DNA from: an uncultured Gammaproteobacteria bacterium
GTDB lineage: Bacteria > Patescibacteriota > Patescibacteriia > Veblenbacterales > UBA10138
DNA length: 64,000 nucleotides
Direction of reading: 5' to 3'
NCBI GenBank assembly: GCA_964453605.1
Contig: CAYVOI010000001.1
Location: 420,095 to 484,094 of the forward strand
Part shown: positions 3,125 through 51,967 of the stretch, one piece after another
Layout: each line of letters opens with the position of its first letter
How positions within the stretch are numbered: position 1 is the stretch's first letter
The notes under the pieces: model-generated
Database searches by the model: none
Told to the model about the DNA's origin: nothing
The model's input: only the letters and a program-made list of their open reading frames with translations
Program-made: the position numbers and the translations under genes

Positions 3125-3202
3125 GGCCTCATCGTCTAGCCCGGTCCAGGACGTCTCCCTCTCACGGAGAAAACTGGGGTTCGAATCCCCATGAGGCTAC
3201 CA
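3125..3202 (+). tRNA. tRNA-Glu (anticodon CTC) with encoded CCA
   Basis: Cloverleaf folded by hand: acceptor ggcctca/tgaggct; D-stem gtct/ggac; anticodon stem tctcc/ggaga with loop ctCTCac (U33, A37); T-arm tgggg-TTCGAAT-cccca; discriminator A + CCA. D-arm resembles E. coli tRNA-Glu (tcgtctag...caggac). Confidence 0.85.
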
Positions 3203-4706
3203 ACGTTTCTTTTTGAGCAGGTAGCACTGGAATTAGGCCGAAAATAGGGCACGCTTCTGGGGTTTGAAATCCAGGGTAATTGTAGAAGACATTTTGCGGA
3301 AACAGAATCTTTCGCAAAACCTTTAAGTCAGCGGGGTCAAGAGCCTTCCACTCATGCGGAAGGTTTTTGATATATCCGAATGAGAAATCAATTGCCTTGC
3401 TGACATCCAGGCCATCGTAACCGCTATTGCTTCGGGACATCTGTAGCGCTCGTATCCTTTCCTCAAACTTACCTCGATGTTCCTTAAACTCTTCGTCAGA
3501 GATGAGGTCACCCTTGAGCTTCAGCTCTAGCAGACTGTCTCGTTGCTCACCCAACCTCTTGAGCTCGGTCTCGATCTTGGAGTTCTGTTTAGACACCTCC
3601 GCCAGCTCAGTCTCATAAGCGCAGGCTACGGCCTCTTTTAAAATATCGAGTGTGTCCTCCACTGGCACAAGTTGGGTCAAGAACCCTGTAAATTCGCCCT
3701 CAAAGTCATCCTTCGAAATCGAATGGCGCATTTCGCAGCCAACCTTGCCACAGTTGTAGTAGGCATAGCGTCTGCCAGTCTTGCCCCTTGTCCAACCGCC
3801 AGTTATGGAATGGCCGCAGGCACCGCACTTCACACCACGCAACGGGAAGTCGGGGTTGTTGAGGTTCCGAATGACTTTCTTCGGGTCGCCGCCGGTCAGT
3901 AAAAACTGCACCTTGTCGAACAGCTCCTTGCTCACGATCGGCTCATGCTTGCCTGGCACGCAAATGTCCCACTTAGGAACACTAATCCAACCGCAGTACA
4001 GTGGGTTGGTCAAAATCTTCACTAACAACTGGGGCGAAATGTCTAGACGGAGCGTCGGGTCGAGTTTCATGGCCTTTTGCGCCAGTTCCCGAAACGTATA
4101 AATGCCCTTGGCATACTCCTCAAAAATGAAACGCACAATAGGCTCGCGTTTCCGTTCAGGCACAATGACTTTGTTGTTAGCGGCATCTCTAGTATTAACG
4201 TAACCGAAGTTGGCCTTGAACGCCCAGTTACCAGCGTTCAGCGCTGTCCTCATTCCCTCGGCCGTTCGTTGCGCTCTAATGTTGTTATCGAACTGAGCCA
4301 TGGCAGATAAAATCCCTTCCATCAGTTGTCCCTGCGGGTCGCTTGCTATTGCCTCCGTGGCAGATAAAATTGTTACACCACACTTACGCAATATTACCTT
4401 TAGGGCATAGTGATCCTCCAGATTACGAGCGAAGCGGTCAAGCTTGTAGACGATCACGTTTCCCACCCTCCCCTGATTTTTACCGCAGTAGCGGAGCAAA
4501 TTTTGCAATTCGGTTCGGTCGGCTGTTTTTGCAGATTCACCCTCTTCCCTGAATAGCTTGAGTACTGCCAGCCCTTGCTTGTCGGCATAGGCTCGACAAA
4601 CCTTCTCTTGGCTTTCCAGGCTATAGCCATCAAGCTGATCCTTCGAGGAGACCCTGATGTAGATGACGGCTGTCAAAACTGGTTGGTTGCCTAATTTTGC
4701 TTTCAT
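3162..4706 (-). CDS. Large serine recombinase/integrase (resolvase catalytic domain, recombinase domain, zinc ribbon, coiled coil)
   Basis: N-terminal VIYIRVSSKDQ...SLESQ serine-recombinase catalytic motif; CGACGHS...YYNC zinc ribbon; 514 aa; the C-terminal ...GFEPQFSP is encoded by the reverse complement of the tRNA-Glu T-arm. Confidence 0.85.
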   Translation of the reverse strand: MKAKLGNQPVLTAVIYIRVSSKDQLDGYSLESQEKVCRAYADKQGLAVLKLFREEGESAKTADRTELQNLLRYCGKNQGRVGNVIVYKLDRFARNLEDHYALKVILRKCGVTILSATEAIASDPQGQLMEGILSAMAQFDNNIRAQRTAEGMRTALNAGNWAFKANFGYVNTRDAANNKVIVPERKREPIVRFIFEEYAKGIYTFRELAQKAMKLDPTLRLDISPQLLVKILTNPLYCGWISVPKWDICVPGKHEPIVSKELFDKVQFLLTGGDPKKVIRNLNNPDFPLRGVKCGACGHSITGGWTRGKTGRRYAYYNCGKVGCEMRHSISKDDFEGEFTGFLTQLVPVEDTLDILKEAVACAYETELAEVSKQNSKIETELKRLGEQRDSLLELKLKGDLISDEEFKEHRGKFEERIRALQMSRSNSGYDGLDVSKAIDFSFGYIKNLPHEWKALDPADLKVLRKILFPQNVFYNYPGFQTPEACPIFGLIPVLPAQKETLVASWGFEPQFSP

Positions 4707-4846
4707 AGGTTATGAATGATTAAGGTAAGCTTTGCTCGTTTGGTCAAGCTCGGCAAATTAGAGTCGCAAATCACCGAATGGGGTAATCGGCCACGAAACG
4801 GAGAATAACCACGCCTGGGCCAAATTTACATCCCTAGCGACCATCC

Positions 4847-5059
4847 TCATGGGGGGTTAGAGAGCTGGTCGAGGTAGGCAAGAATCTCAAATCGCTCCTG
4901 TTTGTCATAGTCGTCCTTATCCACCAACTTGTTGAACCAGTAATGAACCACGCGGCTGCTAAAGCGCTGTCCTGTAATGGCGGTGGAAAAACATAAGTAC
5001 GAGCTCCAGCCAGGACGCCTTGTAACTAATTGTTTGTACCTACGCTCTATAGATTTCAT
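4847..5059 (-). CDS. Small excisionase/AlpA-like HTH protein (possible recombination directionality factor)
   Basis: STAITGQRFSSRVVHYW matches the Xis/MerR-type HTH_17 pattern (A-x3-G-x3-S-x-V-x2-W); lies next to the recombinase. Confidence 0.4.
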   Translation of the reverse strand: MKSIERRYKQLVTRRPGWSSYLCFSTAITGQRFSSRVVHYWFNKLVDKDDYDKQERFEILAYLDQLSNPP

Positions 5060-5105
5060 ATGGGTTTAAATAAACACTGGGGATACAGGCTATTACAAGC
5101 AACCA

Positions 5106-5312
5106 CTATAACCCCTCTTTTTTAGGCCTTTCTAAAAATGCAACACCTTGGCCCCGTTCCTTAAGCCAACGACGGACGAGGAAATGGGCCAAATCAAAAA
5201 TTTGCTGCGCGAGCGCATCCAACTCATCGTCGGTCAAGGCAGAATACTTAGCCCTAAGCCACTCCGCTATAATTTGCGCTCTTCTTTCATTAAAAAGCTG
5301 ACCCCGTACCAT
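5106..5312 (-). CDS. Hypothetical small protein (island cargo)
   Basis: 68-aa ORF in an operon-like array with its neighbours; no recognisable motif. Confidence 0.35.
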   Translation of the reverse strand: MVRGQLFNERRAQIIAEWLRAKYSALTDDELDALAQQIFDLAHFLVRRWLKERGQGVAFLERPKKEGL

Positions 5313-5351
5313 GGAGTCAGCATAAAATATGAGTAAACTAGTAAGATGACC

Positions 5352-6158
5352 TTATTTTCCTATATTCCTTCGCCTCATCCTTTCGCGTTGTTTTCTCAGG
5401 CGCATAAGCGCTTTCCTATCCATCGGGTCATTAGGATCTTGTGGCATATATTCAGCGACTAGACTAAGGTCATTTTCTTGTTCCAAGCGCTGCTCTACAA
5501 CTTCCATCACTTTACCTTTTTTAACGACGGCAGCCACGTTGGCACTACTCCTTAACCTCCGAACTTTGTTCACACCACAGCTGATAACTAGCTTTTGAAA
5601 GGCATCCCAAACTTCTTTTTTGAGCTTCGGCACTCTGCCCCTAAACCGAATACCAAAGGCATGACGGAATTCGGCCAGGGCGTACTCCTTATCTTCAGTT
5701 GAGAGAGGAATTTCGTCCAGGTTGCCAGCAATCAACAGCAGGTTTCCCAAGAATGTGGTCGGCAACATTGTACTTAGCACAGGCACGCGGTACACCAGAG
5801 CCGCGGTGTAATTTTCTATTAAAGTTAACGGGAGTTCAAATTTTCGCAGCTCTTCCACCACATCAGCCAATAGTGCGAAATCCTCCTGCTGAGATAATGA
5901 GTGAAACCAGGGTGAGCTATTGTACAAATTTATATCATTGTCCTCAGTGAATTCATAAAAATCTTCCTCAGGCTTCAGGCGAGGAATATGGTGACGTTTC
6001 CTCAGCTTTACCAAGGAAGCTTCCATAGCTCCGGTCTCATTAAGCAGAGGCAGACGGCTTTCAGAGATAGCATACTGTGAACTCACGTAATGCTCAGATA
6101 CCAGCTTGAAGGACATTTGTATCGCTTCGGCGATGGGCGAGGGATTGCTATCTTCCAT
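5352..6158 (-). CDS. Hypothetical protein (island cargo), basic C-terminus
   Basis: 268-aa ORF; a TATAAT box sits ~9 nt upstream of the ATG on the minus strand, so the transcript may be leaderless; no known motif. Confidence 0.5.
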   Translation of the reverse strand: MEDSNPSPIAEAIQMSFKLVSEHYVSSQYAISESRLPLLNETGAMEASLVKLRKRHHIPRLKPEEDFYEFTEDNDINLYNSSPWFHSLSQQEDFALLADVVEELRKFELPLTLIENYTAALVYRVPVLSTMLPTTFLGNLLLIAGNLDEIPLSTEDKEYALAEFRHAFGIRFRGRVPKLKKEVWDAFQKLVISCGVNKVRRLRSSANVAAVVKKGKVMEVVEQRLEQENDLSLVAEYMPQDPNDPMDRKALMRLRKQRERMRRRNIGK

Positions 6159-6252
6159 ATGACTTAATTATAGCGAAAAATGTTGATTTATGTTAATTTA
6201 ATGATACAACTTAATGGCCTAAACTTGGTATTTGCCAGGCATGGCTAAAAGA

Positions 6253-6332
6253 CCCAATGACGATACTGAGCTCTACGTTCAGCAACTCGTCATTGGGCCA
6301 TATCCCGAAAGGGGTATGGGGTTCGAAAGAAC
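6253..6332 (+). other. Structured intergenic element: an 11-bp inverted repeat followed by two adjacent GNRA-tetraloop hairpins
   Basis: cccaatgacga...tcgtcattggg; catatccc-GAAA-ggggtatg; ggttc-GAAA-gaacc. Confidence 0.4.
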
Positions 6333-6407
6333 CTAGCTGGCGTAGGGCTTTGTGTTTTGCCAAGAACCAACTCCAAAATTTCTTTTGTTTTACCTTAAAC
6401 CAAAATT

Positions 6408-6881
6408 ATGAACGCCGCCGAAGAAATTGTGAAATACTGGTATGAACAGCAAGGTTATTTTTGCATGGAATCAATTAAGGTTGGGCGAAGAGAAATCGAC
6501 CTGCTTGCCATAAAGTTAAAAGAGAAAGACAACTCGATTCAGGAGGCGGTTCACGTGGAGGTACAAGTTTCAATCAACTATACAAATTTTAAAGAGACTG
6601 TGAAGCAGATAGCGACCCGCTACGACGGCAAGTTTAACGATAAAAAGGTTCAGGCCTACATCCAGCGACTCATCGGCAAGAGTTACCATAAGATCGAGGT
6701 TAGGGGCAAAATGGCACTGAAAGGCAAGGACATAAGACCTGAATATATAAAATTACGAAAGCGCTCAGGAATCACTGTCATCCCATTTGAAAAAATATTC
6801 AACGAAGTAACACAAAAAATGGGCACCGATCATCAACTCAACCCAATAATCCAGGCCGTGCAGCTAGCCAAGTATCAATAA
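6408..6881 (+). CDS. Hypothetical protein, possibly a PD-(D/E)xK nuclease fold
   Basis: REIDLLAIK ... VHVEVQVS resembles the D...ExK core (Q in place of K); conserved N-terminal Glu; 157 aa. Confidence 0.35.
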   Translation: MNAAEEIVKYWYEQQGYFCMESIKVGRREIDLLAIKLKEKDNSIQEAVHVEVQVSINYTNFKETVKQIATRYDGKFNDKKVQAYIQRLIGKSYHKIEVRGKMALKGKDIRPEYIKLRKRSGITVIPFEKIFNEVTQKMGTDHQLNPIIQAVQLAKYQ

Positions 6882-7082
6882 TAACCACACGCCAGTACTT
6901 ATGTCTCAAACCAAGCTTCCCCGTCACACAGTATACTTTTTCACCATTACGAGCTTTATTCACTCGGATATACCGACCTCTACAACACCTGCCCGCTATA
7001 TAAACTAGGTCATATAGAATAAATCTTTTGTAAACTTACCGCTTTTTAAATTAACTTATAAAAAAGAATTTTATTTTTTAAG

Positions 7083-7110
7083 AAAAATGGCTTATTTTAG
7101 CCATTTTTTT
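7083..7110. terminator. AT-rich hairpin terminator (bidirectional)
   Basis: aaaaatggct-tatttt-agccattttt followed by a T-run. Confidence 0.5.
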
Positions 7111-7175
7111 ATATTTATAACATTCTATAAAACTTAAATAATGTATGTCTAAGAATAGAAATTTTATAAATCCCC

Positions 7176-7204
7176 TTGACAGGCCTTTATAGATTGCCTA
7201 AAAT
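7176..7204 (+). promoter_or_regulatory. Near-consensus sigma70-type promoter upstream of the 7237 ORF
   Basis: TTGACA, 17-bp spacer, TAAAAT. Confidence 0.55.
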
Positions 7205-7236
7205 GATACTGTCTTACAACTTAATCTCATAACTTT

Positions 7237-8037
7237 ATGGGGCTCAGTGACTTAATTGTTGACCAAAGGCAAATCAGCGAAGAAATGATTGAAAACCTAC
7301 TCAAAGGAAATGTTGAGCTAATTAAAGAGGACAGCGGGGTCAGGTTAATGCCCGCAGTTTCAAAATTCACTGCTGCTACCAAAGTCCTCCTCATCTTGGC
7401 AGCTAAAAAGGCTTGGGAAATGATATCGAAAACTCCACACCCAACTACTGCCTCAGAAATTGAAGGTGCCACTGGGCTACCGCTAAACACAATTTACCCA
7501 GTAATGAAAAAATTTAACGACGACCGTTTGGCAATATCGAGCAAAGGGAAGTACAGCATAACAAATAGGGGCATCCTCCAGCTACCCGCTCTAATTGATG
7601 CGGACAAAAATCGCAGTCACACAAATAAGACGAGTAATACGGCTGGCAAAGTGACTCGCAACCGCCCCAGTGGGCGCCCAGATATAATTAAAGCAATTAA
7701 GGAACACCACATGGAGCCTCAATACGTTGAAACCATCCTACCTATTCTGGAAAAGTCCAGGCACAGTGATAAATACTTATTAGCTATCTACATCGCAAAA
7801 GATAAAATGGCAATAGATGGACTAACCTCTAGTGAGATTCAATACTTACTTAACGAGGCCCCGCTCAAATTGCCGAAATTGTACTCTTCAAATATTAGTC
7901 GCGATCTACCAAAGCTCAGGAATTTTACCACACCATATCCAGCTGGAAGTTCCTACGAATACCGCCTTACATCATTGGGAGAGAGGCGCGTCAAAGAGTT
8001 AATCGAAGGTGGAAGTACCAACGTACATCAAGCATAA
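7237..8037 (+). CDS. Hypothetical protein with two winged-helix-like DNA-binding segments
   Basis: ASEIEGATGLPLNTIYPVMKKF...ISSKGKYSITNRG and LTSSEIQYLLNEAPLKL...YRLTSLGERRV look like wHTH units; ends 6 nt before the next ORF. Confidence 0.45.
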   Translation: MGLSDLIVDQRQISEEMIENLLKGNVELIKEDSGVRLMPAVSKFTAATKVLLILAAKKAWEMISKTPHPTTASEIEGATGLPLNTIYPVMKKFNDDRLAISSKGKYSITNRGILQLPALIDADKNRSHTNKTSNTAGKVTRNRPSGRPDIIKAIKEHHMEPQYVETILPILEKSRHSDKYLLAIYIAKDKMAIDGLTSSEIQYLLNEAPLKLPKLYSSNISRDLPKLRNFTTPYPAGSSYEYRLTSLGERRVKELIEGGSTNVHQA

Positions 8038-8043
8038 TTCTAT

Positions 8044-8745
8044 ATGCCAGACTTTATTCAAGATACAGAAGCTCTCATCTCTAACCTATCTCAAAGGTCG
8101 GGAAAAGAAATTTCCGAAAAAGCCTTACTAACACAGGCTCGGGCTTGGGTTAAAAATTATAGCCACACACTCGATACTGTTTTTAGTGGCCCAAACGACC
8201 TCGATAAACTCCACTACATCGGCCGTACTGTCCATAACCAACGTTTAGATAAAAGTAGCTGGCTAAAAAAATTAAAAGCACTTAAAAAGAAAATGGAAAT
8301 ATTAGAGCAAACAAAAGAATCCTCACTGGGTATCTGGTCGTTCGATCCTAATAAACCGTTTACCGCCTACCAGACCCTACGAGAATTTTTTGCTAATGCA
8401 CAAAACAGGGTACTGATTTATGATGGTTACGTTGAGGAAAAAACCCTAGAAATATTAGGTTCATTGCCTAAATCTGCATCAATAAGAATTTTAACAAATA
8501 ATACATATGGAAACTTTACAAGAGAGTTGAGGCTATTTGAAAAAGAACACTCTATAGAGGTTAAAAAATTATCAACCGTGCATGATAGGTTTTTTATAAT
8601 TGATGGAAAATGTTACTTATCAGGGACATCTCTACACTCCCTTGGAGGGCAAAAATCATCCACCCTATGCTCCGTGGATAGTCATATAATGCAAATTTTC
8701 GAAAAACGATTTGAACAAGATTGGGCTCCCGCTACTAAAGTCTAG
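8044..8745 (+). CDS. Hypothetical protein with a phospholipase-D/HKD-like variant motif (putative nuclease or phosphodiesterase fold)
   Basis: VHDRFFIIDGKCYLSGTSL fits H-x-(K/R)-x4-D-x6-G-(S/T), the PLD superfamily signature with K replaced by R; one copy, implying a dimeric Nuc/BfiI-like arrangement. Confidence 0.4.
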   Translation: MPDFIQDTEALISNLSQRSGKEISEKALLTQARAWVKNYSHTLDTVFSGPNDLDKLHYIGRTVHNQRLDKSSWLKKLKALKKKMEILEQTKESSLGIWSFDPNKPFTAYQTLREFFANAQNRVLIYDGYVEEKTLEILGSLPKSASIRILTNNTYGNFTRELRLFEKEHSIEVKKLSTVHDRFFIIDGKCYLSGTSLHSLGGQKSSTLCSVDSHIMQIFEKRFEQDWAPATKV

Positions 8746-8913
8746 TTTGATAAACCGAAAGGGAGTAACCCAAAACGGCGATAAGAACGAACCCTGGGGC
8801 TTTGCGGTGAAATATTTACAGTATTTCCAAACTGAAAAAGTCTAGAAATTAACTCAATCAACGGTTTTGTATTTTTTCGACATAGGGCTACCACTTCAGT
8901 AGTTTTCTTCTGC

Positions 8914-8930
8914 GGGGTCACGGTGACCCC
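8914..8930. repeat. GC-rich palindrome ggggtcac-g-gtgacccc
   Basis: 8-bp inverted repeat with a 1-nt centre, in an intergenic region. Confidence 0.6.
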
Positions 8931-9006
8931 CTGGGCGGACAAATCCCGATAGTGGTACCAAAAGGGATAAAATTCAAACTACTCTATATTAGGGTAGTTT
9001 TTATGC

Positions 9007-45159: not shown

Positions 45160-45420
45160 ATGAGCACAAAATCGTTGCGCTTAGAACTTCTTCAAAAAAT
45201 GTCGGAGCTAGCCACCGCCGGGTTTGGGTTAGTGGCGGCGTTAGCCTGGAACGATGCTATCCAGTCGTTTTTCAAAGACCTGTTTGGCGAGCAGTCGGCC
45301 ACCTGGGCTAAGTTTGTTTATGCCGTACTAGTGACACTCATTGTGGTGTTCATTACCCTTAAGCTCGGGAGCCTTATTAGCAAGCTCAAGGAGCCAGGCA
45401 ATGGAGCACAAAACCAATAA
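45160..45420 (+). CDS. Small membrane protein (start moved to the internal ATG)
   Basis: Two TM helices; 86 aa. Confidence 0.45.
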   Translation: MSTKSLRLELLQKMSELATAGFGLVAALAWNDAIQSFFKDLFGEQSATWAKFVYAVLVTLIVVFITLKLGSLISKLKEPGNGAQNQ

Positions 45421-47194
45421 CCTCAACTGGAAAATCGGTGGTGAGGCTGGCTACGGTATACTGTCGGCTGGGGAAATTTTTGCCTACGCTTGTGCCCACG
45501 GCGGCTTGGAGACCTTTGCCTATTTAGAGTACCCCTCACTCATTCGCGGTGGGCACAATACCTACCAGGTGTGGGCCAGAGCCGACAACGTGCAATCGCA
45601 CTCGCACCTGGTTGATCTACTGGTAGGGCTGAACAAAGAAACCATTGATAGGCATGTAGAGGAAGTAGTGCCTGGTGGCGGGTTAGTGTACGATACCGAC
45701 GATAAACTTTTGCGCGGCTACAAGTGTACCAAAAAAGGCATGGCTGCTTTCCCCATGCCGCTTGAAACCCTGGCCAGGAGTACGGGCGGGGAAAAGCTGA
45801 TGCGGAACGCCGTGGCGGTGGCCGCGAGCTTTGCCTTGGTGCAGTTTCCCTTTGAGTACCTGACTGAGCTTTTAAAGCGCGCCTTTGGTAAGAAAGGTGA
45901 GAAGGTGGTAAACCTAAACATTGCAGCCGCTAAGGCTGGTTATGATTATGTGGCCAAGCACTTTGCGGGTAAGTTTTTATACAAACTCGAGGTGCGGCCT
46001 GAGCGTGGGAAACGTTTGCTGGTCAATGGTAACGAGGCTATAGCTATGGGTGCTATTAAGGGTGGCGTAAAGTTCTACGCGGCTTACCCTATGACACCCG
46101 CCTCCTCCATTCTCCATTACCTGGCAACGCAGGAGAGGAACTACAAGTTGGTGGTAAAGCAAACCGAAGATGAGCTGGCCGCCATGAACATGGTGGCAGC
46201 CGCTGGCTTTGCAGGTGTCAGGGCTATGACCGCCACCTCAGGTGGTGGCTTTTCGCTGATGGTGGAAGCCCTAGGCCTGGCTGGCATGGTGGAGTCACCG
46301 GCGGTGGTTGTACTCGCGCAGCGCCCAGGCCCAGCCACGGGTTTGCCAACCTGGACTGAGCAAGGTGACTTACGTTTTGCCATGCACGCCGCCCAAGGTG
46401 ATTCGCCGCGCCTTATTGTGGCACCCGGCGACCCCGAAGAGTGCTTTGAGCTTACCTTTCATGCCTTTAACGTGGCGGAAAAGTACCAGCTGCCGGTAAT
46501 TGTGATGACCGATAAGTACCTGGCTGAGGCTAGACAAACCGTGCCCTTCTTTAAGACCGTCGGACTTACGATAGATAGGGGCGAGTGGGCCGATACATCG
46601 AAGCTGCCGCCTGATGCGCGCTTCAACCGCTACGCCGATACGGCGAATGGCGTAAGCCCTAGGAGCATCCCCGGCCAACCTGGTGGCATGTTTGTGGCTA
46701 ATAGCGATGAGCACGAGCCGACTGGATTAGCGGACGAGGAAGTTGGGACGAGAAAGATTATGATGGAAAAAAGGATGCGCAAGTTACAGTTCGCCAAGAC
46801 CGACGTGCCCGAACCCATAAAGCTCTACGGCCCTAAGGAAGCCGATGTTACGCTAGTGGGGTGGGGGAGTACGAAAGGTCCGATTTTAGAAGCCATCAAG
46901 ATGTTAGAGCGCGAGCCTAATAAGGCGAAGCCCGGTACCGACCCGGCCAGGACGGGGTCTGGTATCCGGGTAAACTTTTTGCAGGTGCGGTTACTCCATC
47001 CATTCCCGGTAAAAGAGGTGGATGCAGTTTTGAGGCAAGCCAAGCGCCGCGTGCTGATTGAAAATAATTATTCCGGCCAGCTCGGCGGTTTGATTCGGGA
47101 AAAAACGGGTATAGATATTACCGAACGACTGCTCAAGTACGACGGCCGACCCGTGCATCCGGAGGAGATTGTACAAAAACTAGTGGGCACTTAA
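45401..47194 (+). CDS. korA: 2-oxoacid:ferredoxin oxidoreductase alpha subunit (start at the ATG with an AAGGAG RBS)
   Basis: PFOR/KOR alpha domain architecture; followed by the TPP-binding beta subunit. Confidence 0.85.
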   Translation: MEHKTNNLNWKIGGEAGYGILSAGEIFAYACAHGGLETFAYLEYPSLIRGGHNTYQVWARADNVQSHSHLVDLLVGLNKETIDRHVEEVVPGGGLVYDTDDKLLRGYKCTKKGMAAFPMPLETLARSTGGEKLMRNAVAVAASFALVQFPFEYLTELLKRAFGKKGEKVVNLNIAAAKAGYDYVAKHFAGKFLYKLEVRPERGKRLLVNGNEAIAMGAIKGGVKFYAAYPMTPASSILHYLATQERNYKLVVKQTEDELAAMNMVAAAGFAGVRAMTATSGGGFSLMVEALGLAGMVESPAVVVLAQRPGPATGLPTWTEQGDLRFAMHAAQGDSPRLIVAPGDPEECFELTFHAFNVAEKYQLPVIVMTDKYLAEARQTVPFFKTVGLTIDRGEWADTSKLPPDARFNRYADTANGVSPRSIPGQPGGMFVANSDEHEPTGLADEEVGTRKIMMEKRMRKLQFAKTDVPEPIKLYGPKEADVTLVGWGSTKGPILEAIKMLEREPNKAKPGTDPARTGSGIRVNFLQVRLLHPFPVKEVDAVLRQAKRRVLIENNYSGQLGGLIREKTGIDITERLLKYDGRPVHPEEIVQKLVGT

Positions 47195-47219
47195 CTTATT
47201 AGTTTAATAAAATATCACC

Positions 47220-47579
47220 ATGGAGGCTCCGCTATCTATAAACAACAAAACAGGAATAGTATGGTACAAATCAGGTAAGGGCATTGGTGATTTTATTCTA
47301 CGCCTCTGCTTTGTTTGTGTGCTTATGTATTTTGTGCTCATAGGTGCGGCTTTTATTCTTATATATAGTGGATTTTTACAAGATATAGCATTAAGTGTAA
47401 GCAACGGTGCATACTATAATCAAATTTTGTTAAGTTATTATATTATCATAGCCTTAGTTACAGCGACACCGTTAGCTGGGCTCAATAGTAAGCAGGTACA
47501 GCAGGGTAAACGGTCGTATTTCTGGTGCACGCTTCTATGTGAGTTAATTTTTGCAGCCGTTCTGCTGCATATATGGTAA
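47220..47579 (+). CDS. Hypothetical three-TM membrane protein, AT-rich cargo between korA and korB
   Basis: About 37% GC; three hydrophobic helices. Confidence 0.5.
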   Translation: MEAPLSINNKTGIVWYKSGKGIGDFILRLCFVCVLMYFVLIGAAFILIYSGFLQDIALSVSNGAYYNQILLSYYIIIALVTATPLAGLNSKQVQQGKRSYFWCTLLCELIFAAVLLHIW

Positions 47580-47621
47580 CCACCAAAGATTTCGAAACTT
47601 CCCAATTTCCCACCTGGTGCC
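47571..47621 (+). repeat. Direct repeat copy 1: orphan copy of the korB start region (51 bp, 49 identical)
   Basis: atatgGTaaccaccaaagatttcgaaacttcccaatttcccacctggtgcc against copy 2 at 48851..48901 (atatgCCaacc...). Confidence 0.9.
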
Positions 47622-47687
47622 TTGAGCACCCGAGCCGGCCCATGCATCCGAAGGAAATCATAAATAACCATTAACTAGGATAAATGT

Positions 47688-48833
47688 ATGAATCTGCTGC
47701 AGTATAAGGAAGTCTCCAGAAGTCAACGTATTTTGTATTGGATAGCTCAGTTGATACCTTCAGTTTTAGTATTACTAATAAACTATATCGTTTTTAGCTA
47801 TTTTATAGACATAAATACTATTTATACAAAAGTGAACGAGTCGTTACTTTCCCCAATACTTGCAGGTTTTTATATCTTGGTGTTTGAGATAGTGCTCTGC
47901 TTAGTCTTCAGTTTAGGAATTAACCTGGCGTTCTTTTACAGACGCATCATTAAATCCACCGCCGGCCTCATCTTCTTAGTGTCATTGCAAATAGTGATTT
48001 TACCAATAGTTCAATATGCTGAGGCTAGTATTAAAGATAGTTATTATACGAGGAGCCGTGTTGACCTAGTCCAGAAGGTCTTAAATACAAAAAGTTCTGA
48101 GGTCGCAATACAAGAAATCATTGCGATGGATTTTACCGGCAGAAGGACAACTGAAACTGAGCTTATTAATACCCTGGTAGCAGCCCTCAACAGCGCAAAC
48201 GATGCTGACTCTCAAACAAGGCTTATACGAGCTATGGCAAACCCGTCGTTTGCTCTTCAGTTAGATAACAATAAGCATTGGGTTTACCCAATAGCCACAG
48301 CGATTGTTGAACTGAATACTAAAACATCCACAGCTTTTACCGTCAGGCAAGCGAGCTTTGCTACCCTTAAGGTTCACTGTACTGATGACACCGTGAGCGA
48401 CAATATTACTTGCGTAGGGTTATGGGAGTTGACCAAAGCCTCTTTGAACCTAAATGACGAGGCAGTACGTCAACTCACCTACTCAAATTTTTTTGATGCT
48501 GCTACGATGACCAACTATCAGTTCGATGACCCCCTCAGTAAGAGTGCCCTGAGTGCTATTTTTTCTTCTTTTGTTAATGAGCCAAATACAAGTGTTCGGG
48601 CGAACATGGCGATCGAAATGGTAAAATGGCTTGGGTCGGGCAACACTCATTATAATCTAATATCTACTACGAATAGTACTCTATCCATAGAGCTTGTTAA
48701 TTTGTTGTTAAGTTATAAAGATCAATTGCAGCCACTCGCTAATCCGCCAGGCAGACTAGGTTATGATCCTGTTAAAAATCTAGAACAGCTTAAGGTTAGT
48801 TTAGGTGGATCGGTAAACATTGCGACGCCATAG
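47688..48833 (+). CDS. Hypothetical membrane protein (four N-terminal TM helices plus a ~250-aa soluble domain), AT-rich cargo between the repeats
   Basis: About 30-35% GC; AGGA RBS; no motif. Confidence 0.6.
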   Translation: MNLLQYKEVSRSQRILYWIAQLIPSVLVLLINYIVFSYFIDINTIYTKVNESLLSPILAGFYILVFEIVLCLVFSLGINLAFFYRRIIKSTAGLIFLVSLQIVILPIVQYAEASIKDSYYTRSRVDLVQKVLNTKSSEVAIQEIIAMDFTGRRTTETELINTLVAALNSANDADSQTRLIRAMANPSFALQLDNNKHWVYPIATAIVELNTKTSTAFTVRQASFATLKVHCTDDTVSDNITCVGLWELTKASLNLNDEAVRQLTYSNFFDAATMTNYQFDDPLSKSALSAIFSSFVNEPNTSVRANMAIEMVKWLGSGNTHYNLISTTNSTLSIELVNLLLSYKDQLQPLANPPGRLGYDPVKNLEQLKVSLGGSVNIATP

Positions 48834-48850
48834 TCCGATTGAATGATCTT

Positions 48851-48901
48851 ATATGCCAACCACCAAAGATTTCGAAACTTCCCAATTTCCCACCTGGTGC
48901 C
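48851..48901 (+). repeat. Direct repeat copy 2: the functional korB start
   Basis: See copy 1. Confidence 0.9.
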
Positions 48902-49740
48902 CGGGGTGCGGGGACTTTGGTATTTGGACGTGCCTCAAGAATGCTTTTGTGGAGCAAGGTTTAGCGCCGCACGAGGTGTGCGTGTCGTTTGGCATTGGTT
49001 GCAGCGGCAACATGGCCAGCTTCCTTAATGTATATGGGTTCCACGGGCTCCACGGCCGCAGTATTCCACCTGCGAGCGCTATAAAGCTTGCGAATCATAA
49101 ATTAAATGTAGTTGCAATTGGTGGCGATGGCGATGGCTACGGCATTGGCCTGGGGCACACCATTCATGCTATGCGAAGGAACCTGGACATAACCTACGTG
49201 GTGCACAACAACCAGGTGTACGGGCTTACCAAGGGCCAAGCCTCACCTACCACTGAGAAGGGTGCGCCGACAAAGTCCACGCCGTTTGGTTTAATCGAAG
49301 AGCCGCTGGACCCTATGGCGCTTGCTATTTCAGCTGGGGCCACGTACGTCGCGCGCGGCTACGCGGGTAACGTAAAGCAGCTCACGGAGCTTATTGTGGG
49401 CGGTATGAAGCACAAAGGCTTTGCACTCATCGACGTAATGCAGCCGTGCGTTACCTACAACCACCTCAACACCTTTCACTGGTTCTACCAGCGTATCTAT
49501 GAGTTGGATAAAGAAGGCCATAATCCCAAAGACAAGCACGCTGCTTGGCTTAAGGCTATGGAGTGGCCCACGCCGTTAACGTATGACCCGAACCGCATTG
49601 ATCGAATTCCCACCGGGCTCTTCTACCAAGAAGAGCGGCCGACGTATGAAGACGAACTACCAGCTATTGCGGACAAGCCCTTAGTGGAACACTCGTTGGA
49701 GAACATCGATATTACAGCCCTAATGGAAACATTGAGCTAG
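48853..49740 (+). CDS. korB: 2-oxoacid:ferredoxin oxidoreductase beta subunit (TPP-binding)
   Basis: CPGCGDFG Cys motif and the GDG TPP-binding region. Confidence 0.9.
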   Translation: MPTTKDFETSQFPTWCPGCGDFGIWTCLKNAFVEQGLAPHEVCVSFGIGCSGNMASFLNVYGFHGLHGRSIPPASAIKLANHKLNVVAIGGDGDGYGIGLGHTIHAMRRNLDITYVVHNNQVYGLTKGQASPTTEKGAPTKSTPFGLIEEPLDPMALAISAGATYVARGYAGNVKQLTELIVGGMKHKGFALIDVMQPCVTYNHLNTFHWFYQRIYELDKEGHNPKDKHAAWLKAMEWPTPLTYDPNRIDRIPTGLFYQEERPTYEDELPAIADKPLVEHSLENIDITALMETLS

Positions 49741-51478: not shown

Positions 51479-51525
51479 CTGACCGTGGGTTTAAGTTTGA
51501 TCTTTTTGAATACAGAGACAAAATG

Positions 51526-51556
51526 AAAGCCCCTCCAACGCGAAAGGGCTTTTTCA
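51526..51556 (+). terminator. Rho-independent terminator after recJ
   Basis: aaagccc-ctccaacgcgaaa-gggcttt followed by TT. Confidence 0.55.
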
Positions 51557-51580
51557 GAACATGTTCTTTGGCTCTATGCT

Positions 51581-51889
51581 TCAGTAGCCAGCCAGTTCCT
51601 TTACGGAGAGTATAAACATTTTGAGTTTCCGCTTGCATTTTTTGCACCCGCCATCGAGTACAAGGATATGCCGGAGACCTTGTTCTAGTAAGTCAGGATC
51701 TACCCGCTCAAGGCTGTGCGGCCATCGGTGCTGGGTGTGTTTGATGTATATATCAATTATTTGATCGGTGAACTCAGCACCACCTTCTCGTAGCCTTTCT
51801 TTTAAAAGTTGGTTTACCGCACTGAGCTCCTCCGCGTTGGATGTTAAGGCCTTAAGCTCATTTACAGAAAAAAAGCTTGTGGGTTCCAT
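51581..51889 (-). CDS. Hypothetical protein
   Basis: 102 aa; C-terminal CKKCKRK. Confidence 0.45.
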   Translation of the reverse strand: MEPTSFFSVNELKALTSNAEELSAVNQLLKERLREGGAEFTDQIIDIYIKHTQHRWPHSLERVDPDLLEQGLRHILVLDGGCKKCKRKLKMFILSVKELAGY

Positions 51890-51967
51890 GTTTGAGCCCT
51901 TTATGTATGTTTGACTTTTATTGAGTTAAGCTGTTATTTGGTTTAAACTTAGATCGTAAGCATTTCT

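Follow-up and report, generated by a model that had tools for sequence, protein, structure and literature searches.

In a 64,000-nucleotide (nt) stretch of contig CAYVOI010000001.1 (assembly GCA_964453605.1, positions 420,095 to 484,094 of the forward strand; hereafter the window), from a bacterium of the Patescibacteria (candidate phyla radiation, CPR) near Kerfeldbacteria, the genes for the two subunits of a 2-oxoacid:acceptor oxidoreductase, korA and korB, are separated by 1658 nt that hold two membrane-protein genes and, between these, a second copy of the korB start fused to a remnant of the korA end. The upstream gene, korA (45341-47194), encodes the alpha subunit and matches Pfam POR, POR_N and PFOR_II, with 647 bits against NCBIfam TIGR03710 (cut-off 483), and korB (48853-49740) encodes the thiamine pyrophosphate (TPP)-binding beta subunit and matches Pfam TPP_enzyme_C and PFO_beta_C, with 351 bits against TIGR02177 (cut-off 262). 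Both are clear subunits of an alpha/beta-type enzyme of this class, above curated cut-offs. The start of korA is uncertain (TTG at 45341, or 45401 according to the Logan gene call), the C-terminal tail of KorA, ending in EEIVQKLVGT, is specific to the lineage when tails are compared across relatives, and an exact look-up of the KorB protein gave no record. The DNA between the two genes (47195-48852) contains three open reading frames (ORFs) only, all on the forward strand like korA and korB: ORF119 (47220-47579), a 33-residue chimeric ORF (47573-47674) and ORF381 (47688-48833). Its GC content is 0.40 overall and 0.33-0.45 per 300-nt window, compared to 0.53-0.54 for korA and korB, so that a preliminary description of this DNA as AT-rich, made from the sequence alone, was slightly too low in giving 30-37% GC. 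The same description had the insert devoid of integrase and transposase, and no such domain occurs among its ORFs; neither the ORF list nor family scans placed a recombinase in or beside 47195-48852.

ORF381 is bracketed by a direct repeat of 52 nt on the forward strand (47570-47621 and 48850-48901; 50/52 identical, spacing 1280 nt), whose 44-nt exact core occurs twice in the window against none expected from 100 shuffles. Copy 2 is the functional korB start (MPTTKDFETSQFPTWC...), and copy 1 is an orphan korB 5' end made up of the ATG and 15 further codons (MVTTKDFETSQFPTWC), which a korB-5' profile also recovered in an nhmmer search (E 5e-10). The two differ by GT at 47576-47577 versus CC at 48856-48857, and their korB parts are identical at 47 of 49 positions, as compared to 43 of 49 at best for any relative. 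That the repeat is a duplicated korB start, and that the upstream copy is an orphan opening a 33-residue ORF, had already been recognised; the korA 3' remnant with which this ORF ends had been overlooked. The ORF runs in frame from MVTTKDFETSQFPTWC to LEHPSRPMHPKEIINNH and a stop codon, that is, through korB codons 1-16 and then through the decayed last ~13-17 codons of korA (47622-47674, forward strand, core 47634-47665). Past korB codon 16 it can be aligned codon for codon to the korA end (LKYDGRPVHPEEI...), and the remnant is in register with live korA (LEHPSRPMHPKEI versus LKYDGRPVHPEEI). The core of the remnant is identical at 21 of 25 nt to the korA end of the window, and likewise to that of the related locus L056, with none of 300 shuffles as good, and an nhmmer search with a korA-3' profile found it at E 0.0017. 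Decay is evident in the invariant YDG motif of korA, which here reads HPS, in 12 mismatches over 39 nt relative to the window's own korA end, and in the 12 nt just past the joint (47622-47633), where the korA codon register is kept with 6-7 mismatches.

The order of gene ends in the chimera is the reverse of the native one, in which the korA end precedes the korB start. Position +49 of korB is joined in frame to korA at about -53, and the joint, itself non-homologous, adjoins a segment homologous to the target. The stop codon of the chimeric ORF sits 13 nt before the ATG of ORF381, and the live korA tail and the spacer downstream of it are unrelated to the tail of the remnant. Logan unitigs from run SRR12313480, each reported from two samples, reproduce these junctions and terminate precisely at the 44-nt repeat, in keeping with the structure, k=31 leaving the linear order unproven; in independent unitigs the distinguishing GT and CC bases are linked to their own left flanks. 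The repeat and the orphan korB start are confirmed as real features.

We compared the junction in 21 distinct related loci drawn from a genome collection, a metagenome collection and exact-protein look-ups. The gene order DUF5654-korA-korB-recJ-RNase H is kept in most of them, DUF5654 having no match upstream of korA in L058 and L061. The site is empty in 10 of the 21, where the korA stop and the korB start overlap by 14 nt, which sharpens the earlier statement that the two genes are normally adjacent. It is occupied in the other 11, with content that is mostly unrelated between loci: a 628-residue membrane protein in L039, the closest relative (KorB 92%); small membrane proteins in L056, L057, L008, L065 and L066; a DUF6922 and AbiEii pair, also in L008; a SHOCT gene in L006; an EEP-family protein in L003; an HNH endonuclease in L046; a rhodanese in the more distant L052; and a 72-nt spacer in L041. 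The GC content of the inserts is 0.33-0.44 (0.21 for the L041 spacer) while that of host korB ranges over 0.37-0.59, a near-constancy that could stem from a shared gene pool, mutational bias or weak selection. Judged from these alignments, the korA/korB junction is a recombination hot spot that varies among relatives. The L046 insert (199-954, the same as in L055) comprises the HNH endonuclease gene (Pfam HNH, E 1e-10) and an 85-residue ORF, and a free-standing nuclease that cuts empty alleles could help to make the junction a hot spot. For a sliding-window search of a breakpoint in korA or korB the relatives were too divergent (65-85% nucleotide identity), with a weak hint that L039 is no longer the closest in the last third of korA. 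In two metagenome contigs, L048 (718-1562) and L055 (962-1736), the korB alignment is split in two, suggestive of frameshifts or errors of assembly.

Orphan copies of a korB start or korA end occur in three of the 11 occupied loci, L006, L008 and L057. In L006 a 70-nt repeat of the korB start, 97% identical and 332 nt apart, surrounds the SHOCT gene, the order over 291-865 being a degraded gene start of the M family (defined below), the orphan korB start (453-533), a 70-residue SHOCT-domain membrane protein and the real korB. In L008 (4072-5506, the same as in L045) a direct repeat of 208 nt and 85% identity, consisting of the korA 3' end and 103 nt of downstream DNA, bounds the DUF6922 and AbiEii genes (type IV toxin-antitoxin), and an M-family gene lies between this unit and korB. 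The layout of L057 (KorB 89%) is that of the window: korA, a membrane-protein gene (o133), an orphan korB start (MVTIKDLETSHF, then a stop codon), a second gene (o122) and korB. Its orphan is identical to copy 1 of the window at 29 of 36 positions, with ATGGTAAC and ACTTCCCA in common (blastn E 7e-4), compared to 20 of 36 for its own korB start and at most 25 of 36 for any other. The duplication in the window stops at korB +49, that of L006 at +81 and that of L057 at about +36, and the one in L008 extends from korA -105 to +103; boundaries that differ in every case argue against a site-specific, fixed attachment (att) core.

Several of the small membrane proteins directly upstream of korB resemble each other, and we provisionally name them the M family, on the basis of four sequences (L057 o122, L008 o116, L056 o143 and ORF381) that share similarity over a membrane domain of ~100 residues and a position immediately 5' of korB. 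The motifs of the family are LFxL(A/S)QLLP and INxxW...SLLQI. In blastp comparisons o116 matched o122 at E 1.4e-9 and o143 matched o122 at E 1e-6, the third link among these three being at E 0.003, and o122 matched residues 13-104 of ORF381 at E 1.6e-5. With hhalign, a profile of the three proteins (A3) aligned to residues 10-105 of ORF381 with a probability of 87.6% (E 3.5e-6, 79 columns, 35% identity), and the alignment spans the motifs around AQL(L/I)P and IN..(W/F)...SLQIVI. The same profile gave probabilities of 0.1-8% with the other membrane proteins at the hot spot that served as controls, ORF119 (0.2%), L057 o133 (8%) and L039 o628, and the match to ORF381 is therefore more than hydrophobic bias. 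The L039 protein had been a candidate for membership and was rejected by this profile control.

On these alignments, residues ~10-105 of ORF381 are an N-terminal membrane domain belonging to the M family, and the remaining ~260 residues are modelled as a lineage-specific, all-helical C-terminal extension. ORF381 is thus a lengthened representative of a fast-evolving family that occupies this position. Since relatives of its membrane domain are encoded immediately 5' of korB in three further lineages, the gene is probably itself resident, a foreign origin being disfavoured; the preliminary description had treated it as AT-rich foreign cargo. A motif, AAYCATTAA, precedes the M-family start codon by 10-13 nt in the window (47663-47687), L056 (852-871) and L008, and also in L006. 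In the window the remnant tail ends in NNH and a stop codon, with AACCATTAA 13 nt before the ATG, and in L056 the true korA ends in SNH and a stop codon, with AATCATTAA 11 nt before the ATG. The recurrence of the motif suggests that these upstream regions share ancestry, and it is weak but consistent evidence that the korA remnant, ORF381 and korB form the older unit. M-family genes retain a low third-position GC even in GC-rich hosts.

ORF381 is a real or recently real gene, since its open frame of 384 codons exceeds all those in 1000 shuffles of the region (maximum 196). In protein libraries of 5.8e9 and 1.84e9 sequences, searched by word-indexed and exhaustive methods, it matched itself alone, and it had no match in viral, phage and plasmid collections. 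An AlphaFold2 model from the single sequence was all helical, with a predicted local distance difference test (pLDDT) score of 56.5, too low to support a comparison of folds. A weak match of ORF381 to MIP lay below threshold (17.8 bits, cut-off 25), and among solved structures searched by sequence there was one chance-level match (E 0.089). Kyte-Doolittle scans showed three hydrophobic segments in ORF119, as described before, and three strong ones in ORF381 instead of the four that had been counted. ORF119 has no detectable relatives, and its matches to L008 o116 and L057 o133 were not significant. Its stop codon, TAA (47577-47579), overlaps the orphan korB ATG (47573-47575) in the sequence ATGGTAA, an arrangement that would fit a former direct translational coupling of ORF119 to korB. 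Neither protein scored above a curated cut-off against PADLOC, Pfam or NCBIfam. The idea of a toxin/immunity-like pair fails on this count and on another, namely that the two genes are split by the joint and have different relatives; nor do they make up one two-membrane-protein cassette, given that a scar lies between them and their histories are separate. Our best guess is that ORF119 and ORF381 are envelope proteins that are dispensable, evolve fast and profit from being expressed with a core operon; a physical link to the oxidoreductase is conceivable.

We think it likely that the 52-nt repeat is the scar of a homology-anchored illegitimate recombination between two forms of the locus, by which two membrane-protein genes became stacked; the suggestion of a homology-facilitated insertion in the preliminary description came close to this. 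There would have been two alternative alleles, korA-ORF119-korB (form X) and korA-ORF381-korB (form Y), and a single illegitimate joint, non-homologous or at a microhomology, would have connected korB +49 of form X to korA -53 of form Y, and ordinary homologous recombination within korA or within korB would have closed the other end. The process would amount to homology-facilitated illegitimate recombination of imported DNA, with the single crossover of a circularised fragment as a topologically equivalent route, and would have left korA and korB intact, both accessory genes stacked, and one orphan korB start and one orphan korA end behind. As to its direction, we slightly favour the korA remnant, ORF381 and korB as the resident part, and the new korA tail, ORF119 and the korB start as the incoming one. 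The DNA possibly entered by natural transformation: Saccharibacteria, which are also Patescibacteria, are naturally competent (PMC10633639), and competence genes were not found among the scanned ORFs of the window. The genes from DUF5654 to korB would be co-transcribed, because there is no terminator-like site at any gene boundary in the insert; promoter-like sites in the same scan were not in excess. The orphan korB start, with its short ORF reaching almost to ORF381, may serve as a translational-coupling relay.

Several observations weigh against this account. Neither korA-ORF119-korB alone nor korA-ORF381-korB alone was found in any of the collections, so that the step involving two alleles is inferred; configurations analogous to the parental forms occur only in L056 (korA, M-family gene, korB) and L057. 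The two korB-start copies are distinguished by 2 of 49 positions, compared to 12 of 39 between the neighbouring korA remnant and the live korA end (Fisher p 0.0009), a contrast that is not predicted if the whole scar formed at one time and then diverged neutrally. It could be due to gene conversion, to selection for the orphan start, or to parental korA ends that were different from the outset. The L057 orphan is 81% identical to that of the window, yet the flanking accessory genes have no nucleotide similarity, which hints at constraint or at separate transfers.

The unequal divergence, together with the related orphan in the same place in L057, is the reason to consider that the orphan korB start is retained as a portable translation-initiation or coupling module, a short upstream ORF through which membrane-protein genes lacking a promoter are expressed within korAB. 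We regard this as unlikely, and the same holds for its related form, that M-family proteins are lineage-specific membrane partners of the oxidoreductase. It is also doubtful that a tandem duplication came first, in which one illegitimate exchange between sister chromosomes would have duplicated the segment from korA -53 to korB +49 with a single accessory gene inside, and the upstream accessory copy and korA tail would later have been replaced by, or diverged into, ORF119. This would be the simplest single event to yield exactly the korB5'::korA3' joint, an origin within one genome fits the near-identity of the korB starts, and L057 has the same layout; but ORF119 and L057 o133 are related neither to the M family, by the profile comparison above, nor to ORF381, and with a live korA tail and spacer unlike those of the remnant at least one further replacement would be needed. 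Replicative template switching (microhomology-mediated break-induced replication), with a fork that collapsed at korB +49, switched template and returned upstream, would likewise end in an insertion with a duplication of the target at its flanks, and the patchy in-register similarity at 47622-47633 could be the footprint of the switch. By sequence alone it is indistinguishable from recombination between two alleles, but a second template with the korA end and ORF381 is still required, which is the same two-allele requirement; we hold it to be quite improbable. An assembly artefact, in which a graph loop was threaded through the 44-nt repeat, ORF119 really joins korB and the ORF381 segment lies elsewhere or is circular, would account for the break of the k=31 unitigs at the repeat, where the graph is ambiguous at that k. 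It is exceedingly unlikely, however, as 44 nt is shorter than ordinary reads and than the larger k values of metagenome assemblers, each set of distinguishing bases is tied to its own left flank, the segment holds a korA-end remnant and an M-family gene that both belong at the locus, and analogous structures are present in the unrelated assemblies of L057, L006 and L008.

The preliminary description had also suggested an att core, possibly with mobilisation in trans. By that explanation the 1.28-kb unit would be a non-autonomous integrative cassette with att ends that share a core of ~50 nt, equal to the korB start, and a recombinase encoded elsewhere. Islands that target tRNA genes and elements mobilisable in cis likewise lie between duplicates of a gene end and restore the target, the direct repeat here being long and near-perfect, and a large serine recombinase, the one named in the preliminary description, is indeed encoded in the window (3162-4706); it is the nearest recombinase, 43 kb off and beside a tRNA-Glu gene. 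The insert differs from integrative islands in that it has no integrase of its own, lacks a constant core and does not recur. The end points of orphan copies vary among relatives, which leaves no fixed crossover; an element would have no reason to carry a remnant of the neighbouring korA; ORF381 belongs to a family resident at the site; and the unit has no second copy, the repeat occurring only twice in the window and ORF381 matching itself alone in the protein libraries and nothing in the viral, phage and plasmid collections. Large serine recombinases, whose crossover core is very short, are not known to leave long identical direct repeats. We consider such a cassette very unlikely. A transposon was rejected since there is no transposase domain, none of 14 listed inverted-repeat pairs joins the two ends, and the duplication, 52 nt here, varies in length among relatives. 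An integron attC site was also rejected: the joint (47560-47690) has no unusual hairpin or dyad and is not predicted to fold more stably than shuffled sequences (z -0.25 as DNA, -0.22 as RNA), and no integron integrase was found among the scanned ORFs, which were not all the ORFs of the window. The locus reveals no new type of mobile element.

The serine recombinase gene (minus strand) encodes 514 residues with Resolvase, Recombinase and Zn_ribbon_recom domains, and its end is overlapped by the tRNA-Glu(CTC) gene (3125-3202). Next to it, at 5-9 kb, lies an AT-rich stretch (GC 0.38-0.45) whose ORFs have no family matches, and positions 3125-9000 look like a separate integrative island. Within the block DUF5654-korA-korB-recJ-RNase H, the first gene (45160-45420, forward strand) encodes a small membrane protein (Pfam DUF5654, E 1.2e-22). 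Where genes have been called, it runs slightly into korA in several loci, the window among them, and its product is a possible conserved partner of the oxidoreductase operon. Further along the block, recJ and the RNase H gene are separated by 489 nt of lower GC (51479-51967) with a 102-residue ORF on the minus strand (51581-51889). The corresponding spacer in relatives measures just 3-37 nt, which makes the segment another insertion specific to this lineage; repeats flanking it were not detected. In 46900-49100 no RNA family was detected, the sole match being a sub-threshold snoRNA (E 0.26).

Homology-facilitated illegitimate recombination and insertion-duplication are known from Acinetobacter, Streptococcus pneumoniae and Pseudomonas stutzeri. 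As in those cases, homology within a conserved gene would have anchored one end in the window, the other having been joined without homology, with DNA trapped between them. The laboratory events involved selected markers, whereas here the event is read from a natural scar, the partners were seemingly alleles and the duplication measures only 49-52 nt. In conjugation of Escherichia coli with one-sided homology, most products carry duplications of 109-950 bp of the homologous segment, formed via a single crossover of a circularised molecule (PMC3240628), and such duplications resemble those in the window, L006 and L008. Vibrio cholerae arrays of the type VI secretion system with orphaned gene ends have been attributed to homology-facilitated illegitimate recombination, an idea that was also applied to Rhs loci, and Rhs C-terminal displacement and the orphan modules of contact-dependent growth inhibition are cited there as comparable displacement systems (PMC5361080). 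The window shares with these arrays modules added successively beside a conserved gene, displaced gene-end fragments between them and no dedicated recombinase. The arrays, however, consist of polymorphic toxin and immunity genes with a clear selective logic, whereas the window has uncharacterised membrane proteins in a metabolic operon and no toxin/immunity signature. Compared to korAB and other alpha-beta operons of 2-oxoacid:ferredoxin oxidoreductases (OFORs), korA and korB are clear members and overlap by 14 nt at empty sites, but about half of the loci in this clade hold one or two extra genes between the subunits, mostly for small membrane proteins, including the M family.

The proposed event is of a known kind; what is new is where it took place, within an operon for core metabolism in a CPR bacterium. 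If our interpretation is true, the locus would record how genes are gained and stacked in very small, host-dependent bacteria with few classical mobile elements, namely by homology-anchored illegitimate recombination at the junction of conserved overlapping genes, with expression borrowed from the core operon. A low-GC gene that looks like an orphan can be a fast-evolving resident and not foreign DNA, and the M family of small membrane proteins, tied to an oxidoreductase operon, is a candidate partner of the enzyme.

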